Positions 7,407 through 54,014 of a stretch of 54,277 nt of DNA are shown here, in pieces. Within the stretch, counting starts at the first letter, position 1; each line of letters begins with the position of its first letter. A model generated the notes under the pieces. The model was not told the DNA's origin. It saw only the letters and a list, made by a program, of their open reading frames with translations, and searched no databases. This DNA is from Candidatus Nomurabacteria bacterium RIFCSPHIGHO2_01_FULL_41_71 (GTDB taxonomy: Bacteria > Patescibacteriota > Minisyncoccia > Phycocordibacterales > UBA9973). Location: positions 1-54,277 of the forward strand of contig MFTQ01000020.1 in NCBI GenBank assembly GCA_001785355.1, in the 5' to 3' direction. A program made the position numbers and the translations under genes.

Positions 7407-7492
7407 AAATTCAGCCTCTTCCTGTTGTTTTTCAACCACTGTAATATAACAGATATTGTGGTGGGGAATATCAACCCTTTTTTATTTCATTT

Positions 7493-7530
7493 TGTCTACC
7501 GAATTTTACATATGTCTTTTTCGGTAGACA
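7493..7530. repeat. 38-nt palindromic element, copy 1 (TGTCTACCGAA...ACATATGT...TTCGGTAGACA)
   Basis: 11-bp perfect arms at 7493-7503 and 7520-7530. It shares arms, length and a CATATG centre with the perfect palindrome at 27685-27722. Confidence 0.8.
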
Positions 7531-26084: not shown

Positions 26085-26924
26085 ATGAAAACATACAAAC
26101 CCACAAGTAAATCACGAAGACAAATGACCCATGTTTCTTATCGGGACGTTATTACTCGCATTTCTCCGGAAAAATCCCTGACTCATGGGTTAAGGAGATC
26201 GGTAGGAAGAAACAGCCAGGGACGCATCACCATGCGCCATAAAGGAGGTGGACACAAGCGCCTTTATCGGGAGGTGGATTTTTTATATAACAAAAAAGAA
26301 ATTCCGGCTAAAATAAAATCTGTCGAATATGACCCCAATCGTTCGGCTTTCATCGGGCTTGCGGTATATCGGGATGGAGAGAAGAGATATGTAATATTGC
26401 CAAAATCCATAAAGCCCGGAGACTCTTTTTTGGTATCCGACAAGGCGGAACTCAAGCCGGGGAACAGGCTTCCGCTTAAAAATATTCCGGTCGGGACTTT
26501 TGTCTACAATATAGAGCTTAAGCCCAGGGGCGGGGCGAAAATTGGGCGCGGAGCGGGCGTTTTCGCTCAAGTGGTGGCTAATGCCGAGGGCTATACCAAT
26601 ATAAAAATGCCTTCGTCGGAAATAAGGAAAATAAACGAAAATGCCTGGGCCTCGATCGGAGTGGTCTCAAACGAAGAATACCATTTGCAAAATTTCGGCA
26701 AGGCGGGCCGGAGCCGGTGGAAGGGAATTCGTCCGACCGTTCGCGGCACGGCCATGAATCCGGTGGACCATCCCTACGGAGGAGGCGAAGGCCGTCAGGG
26801 CCGGGGTACTAAGCGCCCGAAGACTATGTGGGGAAAAATTACCGGCGGACGCAAAACTCGCAGTCCGAAAAAGTATTCAAATGTTTTTATCGTTTCTCGC
26901 CGGGTAAAGAAGGGGAAGAAGTAA
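26085..26924 (+). CDS. rplB: 50S ribosomal protein L2
   Basis: Clear L2 sequence (GRNSQGRITMRHKGGGHKR, MNPVDHPYGGGEG). Start set to the ATG at 26085. Confidence 0.95.
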   Translation: MKTYKPTSKSRRQMTHVSYRDVITRISPEKSLTHGLRRSVGRNSQGRITMRHKGGGHKRLYREVDFLYNKKEIPAKIKSVEYDPNRSAFIGLAVYRDGEKRYVILPKSIKPGDSFLVSDKAELKPGNRLPLKNIPVGTFVYNIELKPRGGAKIGRGAGVFAQVVANAEGYTNIKMPSSEIRKINENAWASIGVVSNEEYHLQNFGKAGRSRWKGIRPTVRGTAMNPVDHPYGGGEGRQGRGTKRPKTMWGKITGGRKTRSPKKYSNVFIVSRRVKKGKK

Positions 26925-26980
26925 AAAAGGGAGGGCGCTGTACTTGTTGCGTAATATAAGTAGTATGGTATATTTTACTT

Positions 26981-27277
26981 ATGGCCATTCAAAAACATAC
27001 GAAAACCAATGTCCTAAATTTAACCTTAACAGTTCAAGTCTTTAAGGAAGGTAAATACTTTGTTTCCTACAATCCTGAACTAAAAGTTGCAAGTTGTGGC
27101 AAGAATATTGATGAAGCAAAGGAAAAATTAAAGGAAGCAATATCCGGCTTTTTGAAATCGGCCAAAGCGATGAATACCCTAGACGAAATAATGGAAGAAG
27201 CCGGCTTTTCTTATAAAAAGCATCAATGGTTTACCCCAGACCTTTTAGTTATGGATCGTCTGTCCTTGGCGTTTTAA
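26981..27277 (+). CDS. hicB: HicB-family antitoxin
   Basis: 98 aa with a UPF0150/HicB N-terminal fold pattern (VFKEGKYFVSYNPELKVASCGKNIDEAKEKLKEAI), followed 4 nt later by hicA. Confidence 0.75.
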   Translation: MAIQKHTKTNVLNLTLTVQVFKEGKYFVSYNPELKVASCGKNIDEAKEKLKEAISGFLKSAKAMNTLDEIMEEAGFSYKKHQWFTPDLLVMDRLSLAF

Positions 27278-27281
27278 TTTT

Positions 27282-27512
27282 ATGCCAAAAGTAACTCCGA
27301 TTCATTATAAAAAATTAGTGAAGGTTTTTGAATATTTGAATTTTCATTTTGATAGGCAAGAGGGTGATCATTTGATTTATGTTAAAAATGGAATAAAGAG
27401 ACCTGTGGTAATACCCATGTATGATGATGTGCCTGTTTTCATCATCAAAAATGATATAAAGTTAGCCGGTGTTTCGCGAAGCGAATACATGAAAATTTTA
27501 GCAAAAATTTAG
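27282..27512 (+). CDS. hicA: HicA-family mRNA interferase toxin
   Basis: 76 aa with a YcfA/HicA pattern (KKLVKVFEYLNFHFDRQEGDHLIY). Confidence 0.75.
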   Translation: MPKVTPIHYKKLVKVFEYLNFHFDRQEGDHLIYVKNGIKRPVVIPMYDDVPVFIIKNDIKLAGVSRSEYMKILAKI

Positions 27513-27523
27513 AATTTTTTTAA

Positions 27524-27649
27524 GGCCGGGGAACTAAATGGCCAAAAACAATGTGGGGCAAAGTAACCGGCGGCAGAAAAACCAGACGCCCCAAAAAGTA
27601 TTCAAATATTTTCATCGTTTCTCGCCGGGTAAAGAAGGGGAAGAAGTAA
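27524..27649 (+). pseudogene. second, diverged copy of the last 41 codons plus stop of rplB
   Basis: Codon-by-codon alignment with 26799-26924. 16 of 42 codons differ, 12 of them synonymously. The final 36 nt are identical and the frame is intact to the TAA. Confidence 0.85.
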
Positions 27650-27684
27650 AAAAAGAGAAATTAAAAATTAAACAGAATTTTCCT

Positions 27685-27722
27685 TGTCTACCGAAATGAA
27701 CATATGTTCATTTCGGTAGACA
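27685..27722. repeat. perfect 38-nt palindrome, copy 2 (TGTCTACCGAAATGAACATATGTTCATTTCGGTAGACA)
   Basis: Every position pairs. It is followed by TTTT on the + strand, so it may also act as a terminator for hicBA. Confidence 0.85.
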
Positions 27723-27885
27723 TTTTGAAATAAGACTTTTCCACATTTTGATTTGCGTTATGTGTAGATATTGGTAGTCTCTTAAATGGATCCGGCCCTT
27801 TCAGGGGTATCCCAGCCCCCGGCCGGGTCCAGAAGGAGATTATAGGATGTGTTGTAGGCGGCGCGCCCGTTCTAGGAACGGACGC

Positions 27886-27910
27886 AAAAAGGCGCTCCGA
27901 AAGGAGCGCC
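27886..27910 (-). terminator. intrinsic terminator (distal) for the 506-aa gene
   Basis: GGCGCTCC-TTTC-GGAGCGCC followed by TTTTT on the minus strand. Confidence 0.6.
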
Positions 27911-27932
27911 GCCGGCAACTTGGGCTGCCGGC

Positions 27933-27970
27933 AAAAAAAAGGCGGGGGGGGGCTAGCTAGACCCCCCGCC
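27933..27970 (-). terminator. intrinsic terminator (proximal) for the 506-aa gene
   Basis: GGCGGGGGG...CCCCCCGCC followed by T8 on the minus strand. Confidence 0.6.
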
Positions 27971-28098
27971 TCCTCCCGCCGGGCTGGCGCGTTCTAAGCT
28001 AGCCCCAAAATCCACGGCCGGGCCTCGACGCAAGTCGGGCCCGGCCATTCTATTTTTACCCCAACGGCTCATCTCCCGCCATTTGAGCCGTATGAAAT

Positions 28099-29619
28099 TT
28101 ATCCTCTTTTTGCCTGATTCGCCAGATATTCCGCAAGAAGCGCCCGCGCTCCGGCCGACTTCCTCAGCCATTCCGGAAATTGGGACATATTTGGGACGGA
28201 AATCTTGTTTGTTTTCAGGGCTTCTGTTGCCGCTCCGGCGGTGCCGACTACTTCCAACTGCTCGCTACCTCTTTTACTTGTTGTCATTTTTATAAGTACC
28301 ACCCCCGGCATCATTCTTGTTGTTTTTTTCTTTCCCTCTCTTTCCACTACCGGCACATTTACCTCAAAACCGCCTTTTTCGATCAGGCTCTTTATCTCCT
28401 CCGTCACTTTTCCTTTTTTTTCCGAATCGGGAGCGCGTCCCGGAGCTTTCTCCGCTCCGGCAGCAGAGCCGTCTTTCTTTTTTTCTCCTGATTTTTTCTT
28501 GGCAAACATGTATTCTTCTCCGTTGCCGAGTAACTGGCGGAGAATCTGCTGGCCGGTAATCGCCCGCCCCAACTCTTCCAGAAGTTTTTTCATAGACTCG
28601 TCTTCCTCTTTTACTCCGGCATCCAAAGCTTCCCGTTCCGGTTTTTTCTTATCTTGAAGAAAGCTAAGAGTTTGACCGTAATGCACCCCCATCATCATCC
28701 AGGGAGCCACTTCGTTTTCTTTAATTTTTTTGTCCCGATACGCTTCCGCCAATTTTTTTCTTATTTCTTCAAAAATTCCGGGAGTTTTCCCCTGTTCGCC
28801 AAGGGCTGATTTTAGCTTAGTCTCAATATCTTGGTCATCTATTACTTCTTTGATTTTTTTAAAGGCCCTGTTTTGCCGGCTCCGGACGGATTTGAGATCC
28901 GGGATAAACTTTGCTTGGAGGAGTTTTAGCCTTCCTTCTTTTAAAACTTTGGCCGCCGCCGTCCGCTTTTCCGCCTCTCTGGCTTCGATATATCCGAGAA
29001 CTCGGGGATTTGCTTCTATCTCCCGGATCGTCGCTTCGGTCTCTTCGGTTCTTCGTTTGTAAACCGCCAGGGTCCTTTCGATTATTTCTCCCCGCCGGGT
29101 TGAAATTCTATTTTGTTCTTCCAATATTCTTCTCTTTATTTCCTCTCGGAATTTTTCTCGAATGGTAAAAAGTTTAGCCAATGTTTGAGCTTCATCAGGG
29201 GATAGACTTTTTATGCTCTGGAATCTATACAGGACTGTGTCCATATTTTCCAAAATTCTTTTTTGAAGCGGATCTTTCGAATCGCGATCGATTATTTTTT
29301 CTTCTGCCAGGGCTCCATAGTCTCCCGGATTCAGATTTTCCATCGGAGACAATTGCCCGAGCCACTTCAAATATTCTTCGAAGGCACGCAGATACCTGAG
29401 CTGTTCTACTTGTTTTTCCCTCTCATTCACCCTTTTCCCTATTTCTTCTTCGGTGACCAGAGCTTCGGTCGCCATCTTATCCGCCTCTTTCAGTAAATCT
29501 CCCATTTCTTCGGGACTTGGGAAGGAGAACGTTTCTTCTTGCGGAACATCATTATTTTGTTTATTTTCCACCGGGGGCTCATTTGGTTTGGGTATATTGG
29601 AATTTATTCCTTCATTCAT
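28099..29619 (-). CDS. hypothetical 506-aa charged, coiled-coil-rich protein (orphan), antisense to the ribosomal operon
   Basis: Long ORF with its own promoter and terminators. No catalytic, TM or nucleic-acid-binding motif recognised by eye. Confidence 0.7.
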   Translation of the reverse strand: MNEGINSNIPKPNEPPVENKQNNDVPQEETFSFPSPEEMGDLLKEADKMATEALVTEEEIGKRVNEREKQVEQLRYLRAFEEYLKWLGQLSPMENLNPGDYGALAEEKIIDRDSKDPLQKRILENMDTVLYRFQSIKSLSPDEAQTLAKLFTIREKFREEIKRRILEEQNRISTRRGEIIERTLAVYKRRTEETEATIREIEANPRVLGYIEAREAEKRTAAAKVLKEGRLKLLQAKFIPDLKSVRSRQNRAFKKIKEVIDDQDIETKLKSALGEQGKTPGIFEEIRKKLAEAYRDKKIKENEVAPWMMMGVHYGQTLSFLQDKKKPEREALDAGVKEEDESMKKLLEELGRAITGQQILRQLLGNGEEYMFAKKKSGEKKKDGSAAGAEKAPGRAPDSEKKGKVTEEIKSLIEKGGFEVNVPVVEREGKKKTTRMMPGVVLIKMTTSKRGSEQLEVVGTAGAATEALKTNKISVPNMSQFPEWLRKSAGARALLAEYLANQAKRG

Positions 29620-29667: not shown

Positions 29668-29695
29668 TTGCTTTTATATTTAAATTTGATATTAT
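29668..29695 (+). promoter_or_regulatory. promoter TTGCTT-N16-(TGa)TATTAT restarting rpsS and downstream genes
   Basis: TTGCTT at 29668-29673 and TATTAT at 29690-29695 with TG at 29687-29688. Confidence 0.45.
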
Positions 29696-29747
29696 AAATC
29701 CAAGCTCGCTAAGGGCTTATTTTAATGTCTGCCGAATAATTTTTATC

Positions 29748-30098
29748 ATGACCAGAAGCATAAAAAAAGGGATGTATGTTGATGAACGGCTCCTGAAAAA
29801 GGTTGCCGGCAAAAATCCGCTTCAAACCCCCATGATCAAGACTTGGAATCGGGCTTCAGTGGTGTCCCCGGAGATGCTCGGTTTTATCTTCGGCGTTTAT
29901 AACGGTAAGACGCATGTGGAAGTGTTGGTCACGGAGGACATGGTGGGTCACAGACTGGGAGAATTTTCCCCAACCAAGAAATTTATTAAGCATGGCGGAA
30001 AGATGCAGAAAGAACTCGAGCAGAAAAAGAAAGAGGCCGAAATAGCGGCCGCCCAGGGAGCGAAAGCCGCCGCGACGGATGCCAAGGGAACGAAATAG
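29748..30098 (+). CDS. rpsS: 30S ribosomal protein S19 with C-terminal Lys/Ala-rich extension
   Basis: S19 core (GKTHVEVLVTEDMVGHRLGEFSPTKKF) plus a tail of about 25 aa. Confidence 0.93.
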   Translation: MTRSIKKGMYVDERLLKKVAGKNPLQTPMIKTWNRASVVSPEMLGFIFGVYNGKTHVEVLVTEDMVGHRLGEFSPTKKFIKHGGKMQKELEQKKKEAEIAAAQGAKAAATDAKGTK

Positions 30099-44995: not shown

Positions 44996-45032
44996 TGCCC
45001 ACAGCCAGTGCCTCAGGCACTGGCTGTGGGCA
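44996..45032. repeat. REP hairpin, 5' flank of RAYT (17-bp stem)
   Basis: TGCCCACAGCCAGTGCC-TCA-GGCACTGGCTGTGGGCA. Confidence 0.85.
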
Positions 45033-45048
45033 GTGCTATACTTGCACT

Positions 45049-45723
45049 ATGAGAAAGCAACCAATTATAACAGGTGAATATTATCACATATATAATCGTG
45101 GTGTAGATAAGCGAGATATTTTTAAAAACAAAAAAGATATTGATCGTTTCTTTGAGAGTATAATTGAATTTAATCAAACTGAAATTATAGGGAGCATACG
45201 AGATGTAAGAAAGCATCAACCAGTGCCTCAGGCACTGGCTGATGCCACTAAAGATCCATTAGTTTCTTTTGTGGTATATTGTTTAAATCCTAATCATTTT
45301 CATTTTGTTTTGAAGCAGTTAGTGGACGGTGGAATAGCCAAGTTTATGCAAAAACTGCAAGCAGGGTACACTTATTATTTTAATGTCAAGTATTCTCGCA
45401 CTGGATCTCTTTTCCAAGGACCTTTTAAATCACAAGTTATGGCTAGTGAAAATTATTTTAACAAAATTCTTGGATATGTGAATAAAAATTACAAAGTTCA
45501 TTATATTCCAAAAAATAAATCTCATCTTGTCTATGCTAGCGACTATGAATATGAGAATAATAATTTGAAAATTGTTTCAAAAGAAGAAGGAAAAAGATTT
45601 TTGAACATTTTCAGTGGTAATAAGAATTTCAAAAAACACTGCGAAGAAATTATTGATATTATAAGAGCAGAAAGAGGAAGGGTTTCTCTTTTAGAAAAAG
45701 ATGCTCCCCCAGCCAGTGCCTGA
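45049..45723 (+). CDS. REP-associated tyrosine transposase (RAYT; IS200-like Y1/HUH)
   Basis: YHIYNRG N-terminus and HUH motif (NHFHFVL), with downstream Tyr-containing region YTYYFNVKYSRTGSLFQGPFKS. Start set to the ATG at 45049, 6 nt after TGcTATACT. Confidence 0.75.
   Translation: MRKQPIITGEYYHIYNRGVDKRDIFKNKKDIDRFFESIIEFNQTEIIGSIRDVRKHQPVPQALADATKDPLVSFVVYCLNPNHFHFVLKQLVDGGIAKFMQKLQAGYTYYFNVKYSRTGSLFQGPFKSQVMASENYFNKILGYVNKNYKVHYIPKNKSHLVYASDYEYENNNLKIVSKEEGKRFLNIFSGNKNFKKHCEEIIDIIRAERGRVSLLEKDAPPASA
45213..45245. repeat. REP hairpin copy inside the RAYT coding sequence
   Basis: GCATCAACCAGTGCC-TCA-GGCACTGGCTGATGC (one mismatch). In frame, it encodes ...HQPVPQALADA... Confidence 0.8.
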
Positions 45724-45744
45724 GGCACTGGCTGGGGGAGCATC
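45700..45744. repeat. REP hairpin, 3' flank of RAYT (21-bp stem)
   Basis: GATGCTCCCCCAGCCAGTGCC-TGA-GGCACTGGCTGGGGGAGCATC. The RAYT stop codon is the TGA loop. Confidence 0.85.
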
Positions 45745-53884: not shown

Positions 53885-53958
53885 CCGCCTGTAGCTCAGC
53901 TGGTTAGAGCATCTAGCTTATACCTAGAGGGTCCTACGTTCGAATCGTAGCAGGCGGA
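53885..53958 (+). tRNA. tRNA-Ile (anticodon UAU)
   Basis: Hand-folded: acceptor CCGCCTG/CAGGCGG, D arm GCTC-AGCTGGTTA-GAGC, anticodon stem TCTAG/CTAGA with loop CTTATAC, T arm CTACG-TTCGAAT-CGTAG, discriminator A. Confidence 0.85.
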
Positions 53959-54014
53959 CACGTTTGGACTTCTCCGAAAAAATGGGTCGCGCGCTTGCGC
54001 GCAATAGTGGAAAA

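Follow-up and report, generated by a model that had tools for sequence, protein, structure and literature searches.

In the S10 ribosomal protein operon of a Candidatus Nomurabacteria bacterium (RIFCSPHIGHO2_01_FULL_41_71; Paceibacteria, Candidate Phyla Radiation), a predicted toxin-antitoxin cassette, hicBA, is bracketed by two copies of the 3' end of rplB, the gene for ribosomal protein L2. The stretch of DNA analysed, 54,277 nt of contig MFTQ01000020.1, is referred to here as the window. The two rplB ends form a direct repeat that is a mosaic of a diverged and an identical part, and the same layout recurs in other lineages at a junction that is a hotspot for insertions. We favour, at an even chance, the reading that a native and a foreign rplB allele were joined by general homologous recombination and not by a dedicated integrase, the crossover lying some 36 nt ahead of the stop codon. 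The operon is arranged as tuf, rpsJ, rplC, rplD, rplW, rplB (26085-26924), 2.8 kb of extra DNA, rpsS (starting at 29748), and the remaining operon genes. The features on which the argument rests are the following:

26085-26924, forward strand: rplB, intact (ribosomal protein L2, 279 aa; Pfam Ribosomal_L2_N, E 1e-31, and Ribosomal_L2_C, E 2e-49)
26799-26888, forward strand: copy A, diverged 5' block, 30 codons of the functional rplB end (69 of 90 nt shared with copy B)
26889-26928, forward strand: copy A, identical 3' block, made up of the last 11 codons, the stop codon and 4 nt (40 of 40 nt the same as 27614-27653)
26929-26980, forward strand: cassette leader with a promoter-like TTGCGT-16 nt-TATATT at 26947-26974, read from the sequence
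26981-27277, forward strand: hicB-like antitoxin gene, 98 aa (structure match and naming of homologues)
27282-27512, forward strand: hicA toxin gene, 76 aa (Pfam HicA_toxin, PF07927)
27524-27613, forward strand: copy B, diverged 5' block, a displaced rplB end fragment with its frame intact and without the upstream gene
27614-27653, forward strand: copy B, 3' block, the same as 26889-26928

A gap-free alignment of 26799-26924 with 27524-27649 gave 105 identical nucleotides out of 126. The hand count of the preliminary description, which had been made by eye from the letters, was reproduced exactly: the copies align codon for codon, 16 codons differ, 12 of them synonymously and four not (R/W, I/V, S/R and V/I), the last 36 nt are identical and the reading frame is intact. 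The 21 base differences fall on the third (15) and first (6) codon positions and never on the second. Identity runs 4 nt beyond the stop codon, which brings the repeat to 130 nt (26799-26928 and 27524-27653), the sole long direct repeat in the window. Its first 30 codons gave a pS of 0.70, a pN of 0.094 and an omega of about 0.05 between copies A and B (Nei-Gojobori). This divergence is at the level seen between the rplB of the window genome and that of other Nomurabacteria (pS 0.68-0.82, pN 0.09-0.11), and corresponds to that between rplB genes from separate genera. The last 40 nt contain no difference at all; a run of 40 identical nucleotides beside 23% divergence has a probability of about 2e-5, or about 2e-4 if only third positions are considered. 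Because the 5' block has diverged as rplB does between lineages while the adjoining 40 nt are identical, the repeat is a mosaic with its junction 36 nt before the rplB stop codon.

The silent character of the differences was compared with what neutral change would produce. If both copies were neutral, so few nonsynonymous changes would have a probability of 3.6e-6; with only one copy neutral (omega=0.5) it would be 0.0017, and this second rejection holds before any correction for silent-site saturation. In a simulation with 21 random substitutions in the first 90 nt, four or fewer amino-acid changes were obtained in none of 100,000 trials. Judged by this pattern, the 5' 90 nt of both copies behave as one expects of two functional rplB alleles of different lineages, saturated at synonymous sites, and the sharp change to 40 identical nucleotides marks a recombination junction within the conserved gene end. 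The earlier proposals that two alleles from different lineages had been joined by recombination within the gene end, and that an in-place duplication followed by decay would not give this pattern, thus stood up.

The identical 3' block encodes an unusual L2 tail, IVSRRVKKGKK followed by the stop. Beyond the window species, the SRRVKKG tail was found in one of about 260 related L2 sequences (P0102), and also in P0049, which was treated as a probable chimera (see below). Read in the frame of copy B, the L2 end is ...GKVTGGRKTRRPKKYSNIFIVSRRVKKGKK followed by the stop. This version carries a tryptophan in place of an arginine (in GTKRPKT) that is otherwise invariant across all relatives, a change that suggests relaxed constraint. 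The L2 of the window as a whole is 85-88% identical to 279-aa homologues, with which it aligns over its full length.

The structure was seen repeatedly. Proteins identical to HicA and HicB of the window are encoded on at least 23 contigs, which come from several studies and assemblers. Where a contig spans the region, its identity to the window is 99.2-99.95% and both copies are present with the same 21 differences. The structure is uninterrupted, and flanked by unique sequence on either side, in contigs of at least four independent data sets and assemblers. As both copies and the same 21 differences recur across independent assemblies, the repeat structure is not an assembly artefact. Among the contigs compared within the species, no strain polymorphism was present between 26232 and 27832. 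An apparent deletion in locus L003 turned out to be a scaffold gap of Ns. The preliminary description had named random divergence and collapsed strain variants as the two circumstances that would speak against it; neither was found, the divergence being codon-structured and the structure being present in these independent data sets.

Between the repeat copies lie hicB and hicA only. HicA matches PF07927 with an E value of 3.5e-10 (40.3 bits against a cut-off of 27 bits), and its gene starts 4 nt after hicB. The 98-aa HicB-like protein gave no match in Pfam or NCBIfam. Its AlphaFold model (pLDDT 84.5) best matched, in the PDB, the N-terminal domain of Burkholderia HicB (6g1c) and a HicAB complex (6g26), with a probability of 0.93-1.0, although with E values of only 0.03-0.1 and over about 50 of the 98 residues, and homologues of the protein are named 'HicB family' by JGI. 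The best reading of the gene pair is a predicted hicBA toxin-antitoxin addiction cassette of about 0.6 kb. The order, hicB followed by hicA, is the reverse of that of hicAB in E. coli. The cassette appears to have a predicted promoter of its own in its leader, of which a stretch of ~36 nt is recognisably conserved upstream of hicB in locus L181; a consensus promoter scan did not flag TTGCGT/TATATT. The G+C content of the cassette is 34%, against 49% for rplB and 42% for the window.

The cassette contains no transposase, and no terminal inverted repeats were found at 26929/27523; together with duplications of 36-130 nt that vary between loci (see below), this does not fit a transposon or insertion sequence. 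Family calls for the other genes of the window, and for the genes of relatives discussed below, were taken from the families listed (25 families each for the gap open reading frames (ORFs)). Among those listed for the window no recombinase was present, in agreement with the earlier statement that no integrase or recombinase is to be found. A search of IMG/VR with the rplB tail pattern and HicB, and of plasmid and phage records with HicB, gave no matches; a phage or plasmid origin of the cassette was dropped for this reason.

In five further lineages a small cassette directly follows rplB and is itself followed by a repeat of the rplB end. The limits of the repeats are given below relative to the rplB stop codon, together with the identity of the copies:

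Window: hicBA; -126..+4; 130-nt repeat
L072: mazEF (Pfam E 1e-7 and 9e-23); -69..+1; 100% identity
L116: second hicBA family; -71..0; 100% identity
L154/L156: second hicBA family, as in L116; -72..+34; about 87% identity
L181: hicBA family of the window (84% HicB identity); -20..+34; 36 nt at 100%
L015: UPF0150-like gene; -3..+51; 82% identity

In all six cases, the window included, copy B starts 0-11 nt past the last stop codon of the cassette. The repeated pieces of the rplB end measure 36-130 nt, and three of the six repeats (L072, L116 and L181) are 100% identical. The boundaries differ in all six, even inside the hicBA family of the window (-126..+4 in the window, -20..+34 in L181), so that no fixed core is shared. 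No integrase was found in the five analogous loci. Locus L154 contains a second mosaic, with an identical 3' block and a 5' block diverged mostly by silent changes; its displaced copy has a leucine in place of an invariant proline, akin to the arginine-to-tryptophan change in copy B of the window. The repeat in L154, L072 and L015 takes in the promoter or terminator that normally follows rplB. The hicBA cassettes flanked by rplB ends that the preliminary description had thought worth looking for in related genomes thus exist, both in the same family (L181) and in a second one (L116 and L154).

Cassettes without a repeat occur as well. The hicBA family of the window follows rplB in L091-L097, and mazEF follows rplB in L043, in both cases repeat-free. 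In L182 (1241-1753), the hicBA family of the window (78% HicB identity) lies between rplC and rplD without a repeat of the rplC end. No repeat of any kind accompanies four of the cassettes located at ribosomal gene ends. The hicBA family of the window is also found beside unrelated genes, in L099 and one further contig. A common motif at the cassette junctions was sought, and nothing convincing emerged. Other direct repeats in the operons of relatives proved to be mostly repeated promoters, paralogous gene starts or intergenic elements and not gene-end duplications. In L181, G+C-rich hairpin elements (GACCTCACCCC...GGGGTGAGGTG) follow both rplB-end copies (1853-1950 and 2549-2640), and a related sequence follows copy B in L116.

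The junction between rplB and rpsS was compared in about 110 non-redundant related loci from genome and metagenome collections. The shortest gap measures 67 nt and the longest exceeds 5 kb, the median being near 0.7 kb; in Firmicutes, Actinobacteria and other phyla in the same search the distance is 0-23 nt. The junction is a clade-wide insertion hotspot. Among the families listed for the 187 gap ORFs are diacylglycerol kinase (7), GIY-YIG (4), NUDIX (4), MazF (3), HicA (3), MazE (2) and Phd/YefM (1), as well as one small resolvase-like ORF and one reverse transcriptase; an integrase is not among them. No full-size integrative element was present at the site in about 170 loci. An empty site, in which rplB would be followed directly by the sequence after copy B, had been suggested as a check: relatives with short gaps of 67-150 nt do exist (L104, L118 and L100, for example), although none of them is a close relative (88% L2 identity or less).

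Several further observations were made in these gaps. The gap genes of relatives include, next to the four small GIY-YIG ORFs and the reverse transcriptase, one T5orf172 ORF; homing-type nucleases could help to make the site a hotspot. In some Paceibacteria (L072 6638-7547, and L061), rplJ and rplL, encoding L10 and L7/L12, lie between rplB and rpsS, an unusual placement. In relatives, the spaces between consecutive ribosomal protein genes contain repeated elements of 80-150 nt, of which one operon has several copies that are 72-93% identical, as in L116 (3121-3255, 3849-3981 and 7292-7424, and 9435-9574 and 9983-10123) and also in L017, L125, L160 and L042. These may be repeated promoters or leaders, or small mobile elements.

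The hicBA cassette is mobile, since the family of the window was found at several different genomic positions: after rplB in at least four lineages, after rplC in one, and in two unrelated contexts. For the second hicBA family, a comparison of L116 with L154 gave a pS of 0.24 for hicA and 0.39 for hicB, whereas 14 flanking host genes gave 0.49-0.67. As the silent divergence of hicBA is below that of these host genes, the cassette is younger than the split of its hosts and has been transferred; L116 and L154 nevertheless share the left limit of copy B. In the family of the window, pS is 0.48-0.70 versus 0.60-0.92, near saturation, and the amino-acid identity of HicBA (73-88%) is equal to or above that of L3, L4 and L23. 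The likeness of cassettes is not tied to their position, the cassette after rplC being as near to those after rplB as these are among themselves.

Which of the two copies came from elsewhere, a point on which the preliminary description is silent, was addressed in several ways. In a nucleotide comparison with 139 related rplB ends, the best match was 76 of 90 nt for copy A and 73 of 90 nt (81%) for the 5' block of copy B; with both equally distant, placing either copy in a lineage by nucleotide identity was given up. The search for the lineage of each allele, which the preliminary description had recommended, therefore yielded no assignment, and a weak indication of direction came from other features. 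P0102, the other holder of the SRRVKKG tail, has the V and I residues of copy B. The codon choice of copy A fits the ribosomal-protein genes of the window somewhat better than that of copy B (log-likelihood -12.9 against -15.2, or about 10:1 in favour of A, from 12 codons). Because the tail of P0102 goes with B-like residues and the codons of copy A suit the host better, we infer, on weak evidence, that copy B is the donor allele.

P0049 (SRR3989344_269506) was also considered. Its L2 is identical to that of the L101 lineage at residues 1-192 and to that of the window at residues 188-279. It was dropped as a natural recombinant and regarded as a probable protein-level assembly chimera, as there is no contig and the two rplB genes share at most 17 identical nucleotides in a row; its source, the SRC catalogue, was presumably assembled at protein level. 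P0049 serves as a caution for protein-level catalogues. An exact protein look-up of the window L2, with two start choices, returned no record. The degenerate pattern VSRRVKKGKK followed by a stop gave no match in metagenome contigs, and for this reason that collection is taken to be without the window species.

What has been shown is the mosaic repeat, its recurrent layout, a mobile cassette and the lack of any recombinase close by; the direction in which DNA was transferred, the pathway of recombination and the rise of the first repeat are inferences. On the reading that we favour, a cassette already flanked by a gene-end repeat would have been imported from another Nomurabacteria lineage, with the left crossover falling inside the rplB tail. 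It is proposed that the repeat has an identical 3' block next to an allele-like 5' block because the crossover took place within the tail of this repeat-flanked import. Copy A would then combine a native 5' block with a donor 3' block, giving a hybrid functional L2, and copy B would be the donor tail throughout, now an untranslated and slowly decaying fragment. A crossover further upstream would leave both copies identical, as in L072, L116 and L181. The repeat itself would originate from displacement of the gene end, either by a single crossover of a circular or permuted fragment bearing a piece of the tail plus the cassette, or through one homologous and one illegitimate junction. An insertion in the end of an essential gene would be viable only when that end is regenerated, and toxin-antitoxin addiction would guard the insert from recombinational loss. 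We also consider, more tentatively and with more doubt than conviction, that recombinase-free mobile toxin-antitoxin cassettes use a fragment of the rplB 3' end as a portable homology arm, being excised between the repeats and re-integrated by host homologous recombination across diverged lineages of the Candidate Phyla Radiation. If so, the essential gene end would be restored at every move, a displaced copy would stay behind and addiction would block loss, and the rplB-rpsS junction would be a self-sustaining gene-entry site in genomes with few classical mobile elements.

Several points weigh against recombination of an imported, repeat-flanked cassette. In model bacteria, alleles that are only 77% identical recombine inefficiently. 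How the first repeat came about is not accounted for, nor is the start of copy B right at the toxin stop in six independent cases, which hints at a more precise mechanism. The direction of transfer is read from odds of about 10:1 over 12 codons and from two variable residues. For the hicBA family of the window, comparisons of divergence are blunted by silent-site saturation and by the A+T-rich character of the cassettes (34% G+C). Finally, no relative above 88% L2 identity was found in any collection searched, and hence neither a true empty site nor a donor lineage.

Among the alternatives, the one to be taken most seriously, unlikely as we consider it, starts from a duplicative insertion in the species' own rplB end, with a perfect 130-nt target duplication, followed by allelic replacement up to 36 nt before the stop from a cassette-free relative. 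The toxin would kill recombinants that delete the cassette, leaving only crossovers within the tail; the ancestral native end would be represented by copy B, and the import by the 5' block of copy A. Neither the identical 3' block nor the silent-site pattern is explained any less well by this scenario than by the favoured reading. The three repeats that are 100% identical look as fresh target duplications would, and because the boundaries differ even within the hicBA family of the window, repeats would have to arise de novo. To our knowledge, however, no bacterial insertion mechanism yields target duplications of 36-130 nt. The codon choice of copy A, slightly better suited to the host, and the rare VKKG tail that accompanies B-like residues in P0102 also speak against it, as does the left boundary shared by L116 and L154 despite transfer of the cassette, which indicates that the repeat travels with it. 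Somewhat less probable still is site-specific integration, in which the repeats would be attL and attR of an element targeting the rplB 3' end, with an integrase acting in trans or with an addiction-protected remnant of an island from which the integrase was deleted. Direct repeats that regenerate the 3' end of the target gene are the hallmark of such elements, toxin-antitoxin modules are typically the last to survive in decayed islands, and the identical 40-nt block would serve as the att core. Against this stand the boundaries that vary among the cassettes, the lack of an integrase beside any of the six examples and among the families listed for the gap ORFs, the lack of a full-size element at the site in the loci surveyed, and the lack of a tail or cassette in the phage and plasmid records searched.

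The analogy with tRNA-targeting islands drawn in the preliminary description, if taken to mean a site-specific integrase with a fixed att core, is unsupported on the same grounds, to which the missing terminal inverted repeats and the three fully identical repeats are to be added; of its interpretation, the two alleles, the recombination in the gene end and the mobile cassette remain. Very improbable, in our judgement, is retention of copy B for a function, either in cis on the expression of what lies downstream or, for example, through a 32-aa peptide that would start at the ATG at 27551, with the silent-site pattern reflecting selection on copy B. The frame is indeed intact and free of indels, and the repeats that take in a promoter or terminator (L154, L072 and L015) would suit such a role. 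Yet copy B carries the change at the invariant arginine and its counterpart in L154 that at the invariant proline; what comes after copy B in the window is not rpsS but a terminator-like palindrome and a convergent ORF, and four cassettes at ribosomal gene ends have no repeat. In-place duplication with neutral decay, or an artefact of collapsed strain variants, has nothing in its favour beyond the existence of the repeat, and the neutral models, the simulations and the independent assemblies described above make either of them extremely improbable.

Few gene arrays of bacteria are as conserved as the S10 ribosomal operon, and in this clade of the Candidate Phyla Radiation its rplB-rpsS junction takes up toxin-antitoxin cassettes repeatedly. 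A displaced end of an essential gene together with the lack of a recombinase points to selfish cassettes that spread by host recombination and core-gene conservation alone. This bears on how tiny genomes poor in mobile elements acquire genes, on how toxin-antitoxin pairs move, and on whether hybrids can occur among the single-copy ribosomal markers on which phylogeny and binning rely; in the L2 of the window, the last 12 codons probably differ in origin from the rest. The displaced copies would be dated fossils of recombination events that can be mined at scale.

The remainder of the 2.8-kb gap between rplB and rpsS, and its right edge, contain the following features:

27684-27722, no strand: perfect palindrome with 16-bp arms, terminator-like, between copy B and the convergent ORF
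27780-28098, reverse strand: G+C-rich (about 66%) hairpin cluster downstream of ORF506, including a terminator-like site at 27910-27891
28099-29619, reverse strand: orphan 506-aa ORF (ORF506), part of the filling of the gap (weak NusG (NGN) match, E 4.7e-5, residues 401-458)
29680-30098, forward strand: conserved rpsS leader (about 29680-29730) and rpsS (29748-30098; Pfam Ribosomal_S19), right edge of the hotspot

The 39-nt palindrome (TTGTCTACCGAA...TTCGGTAGACA) is present twice in the window, at 27684-27722 and 7492-7530, with 85% identity; both copies are intergenic, and a self-match of the window on the opposite strand was recorded there. The pair may represent a repeated terminator or a REP-like (repetitive extragenic palindromic) element. 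The hairpin cluster (27780-28100) has 66% G+C in a genome of 42% G+C, and several independent assemblies end or turn chimeric there. A search of this stretch in Rfam gave no match of any weight, and an RNA gene was dropped as a candidate for that reason. ORF506 has one distant homologue (24% identity) among 5.8 billion proteins and was not found at the rplB-rpsS loci of relatives. The rpsS leader, in turn, is kept just upstream of rpsS in relatives. Elsewhere in the window, a 33-nt palindromic repeat (..CCAGTGCCTCAGGCACTGG..) occurs three times within 750 nt (44998-45030, 45213-45245 and 45706-45738), and ARAGORN reported a tRNA-Ile with anticodon TAT at 53885-53959. In bacteria such a tRNA is unusual, AUA being normally decoded by a CAU tRNA with a lysidine modification.

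In the literature, no description was found of toxin-antitoxin cassettes bracketed by duplicated ends of ribosomal protein genes, or of an rplB-rpsS hotspot in Patescibacteria. The window can nevertheless be compared with several known systems. Integrative and conjugative elements (ICEs) use as insertion sites the 3' ends of tRNA genes and those of genes for ribosomal proteins (rplL, rpsI and rpmG in streptococci, for example). Such elements, and islands that target tRNA, tmRNA or ribosomal protein genes at the 3' end, resemble the window in that the insert lies between direct repeats, the copy on the side of the element restores the gene, and the copies differ as one of them is that of the element; the 130-nt repeat and the intact rplB of the window agree with this. 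The window departs from those elements in lacking an integrase, a fixed core position and a large element; the insert is 0.6 kb, and the lengths and offsets of the repeats vary. In the minimal mobile elements of Neisseria, different small cassettes are found per lineage between two conserved genes and are exchanged by homologous recombination in the flanks. One site between highly conserved genes with differing small cassettes is a common trait, whereas minimal mobile elements leave the end of the flanking gene unduplicated, and the flanks here are adjacent S10 operon genes that are almost never interrupted in other bacteria (gap of 0-23 nt).

A hybrid gene with a foreign 3' end is known from atp6 of Allomyces, in which a mobile ORF brings a foreign C-terminal segment, the original 3' end stays downstream as a pseudo-copy, and the differences are mostly silent. 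The window shares with it the hybrid functional gene and the displaced original copy. The event in Allomyces is driven by a homing endonuclease, whereas the cassette here contains no DNA endonuclease; HicA and MazF are RNases. In homology-facilitated illegitimate recombination during natural transformation, one homologous anchor admits foreign DNA and the other junction is abrupt (PMC3240628). An anchor in a conserved gene and an abrupt other junction would fit the window, but the process usually deletes recipient DNA instead of duplicating it and would not predict a junction at the toxin stop in six cases.

The closest precedent is that of the rhs loci and similar polymorphic-toxin genes; for rhs, displacement of the gene 3' end to a downstream position by homologous recombination has been proposed, with excision and re-insertion by way of a circle carrying a conserved fragment plus cargo after lateral transfer (Jackson et al. 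2009, PMC2935791). The window differs in its target, which is not a toxin gene but an essential gene for a ribosomal protein, in that the old and new ends encode nearly the same peptide so that no function is swapped, and in its cargo, an unrelated toxin-antitoxin pair in a bacterium of the Candidate Phyla Radiation. What the window and the five other loci have in common with the displacement of rhs C-termini is an intact gene, then cargo, then a displaced 3' fragment with a conserved repeat of variable length, all without a dedicated recombinase. The incoming end and the cargo are likewise of lateral origin, as indicated by the allele-like divergence of the 5' block, by a cassette in L116 and L154 that is younger than the split of its hosts, and by the several contexts in which cassettes are found. 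By this analogy, the layout of the window is best read as resembling rhs C-terminal displacement more than the integration of islands at tRNA genes.

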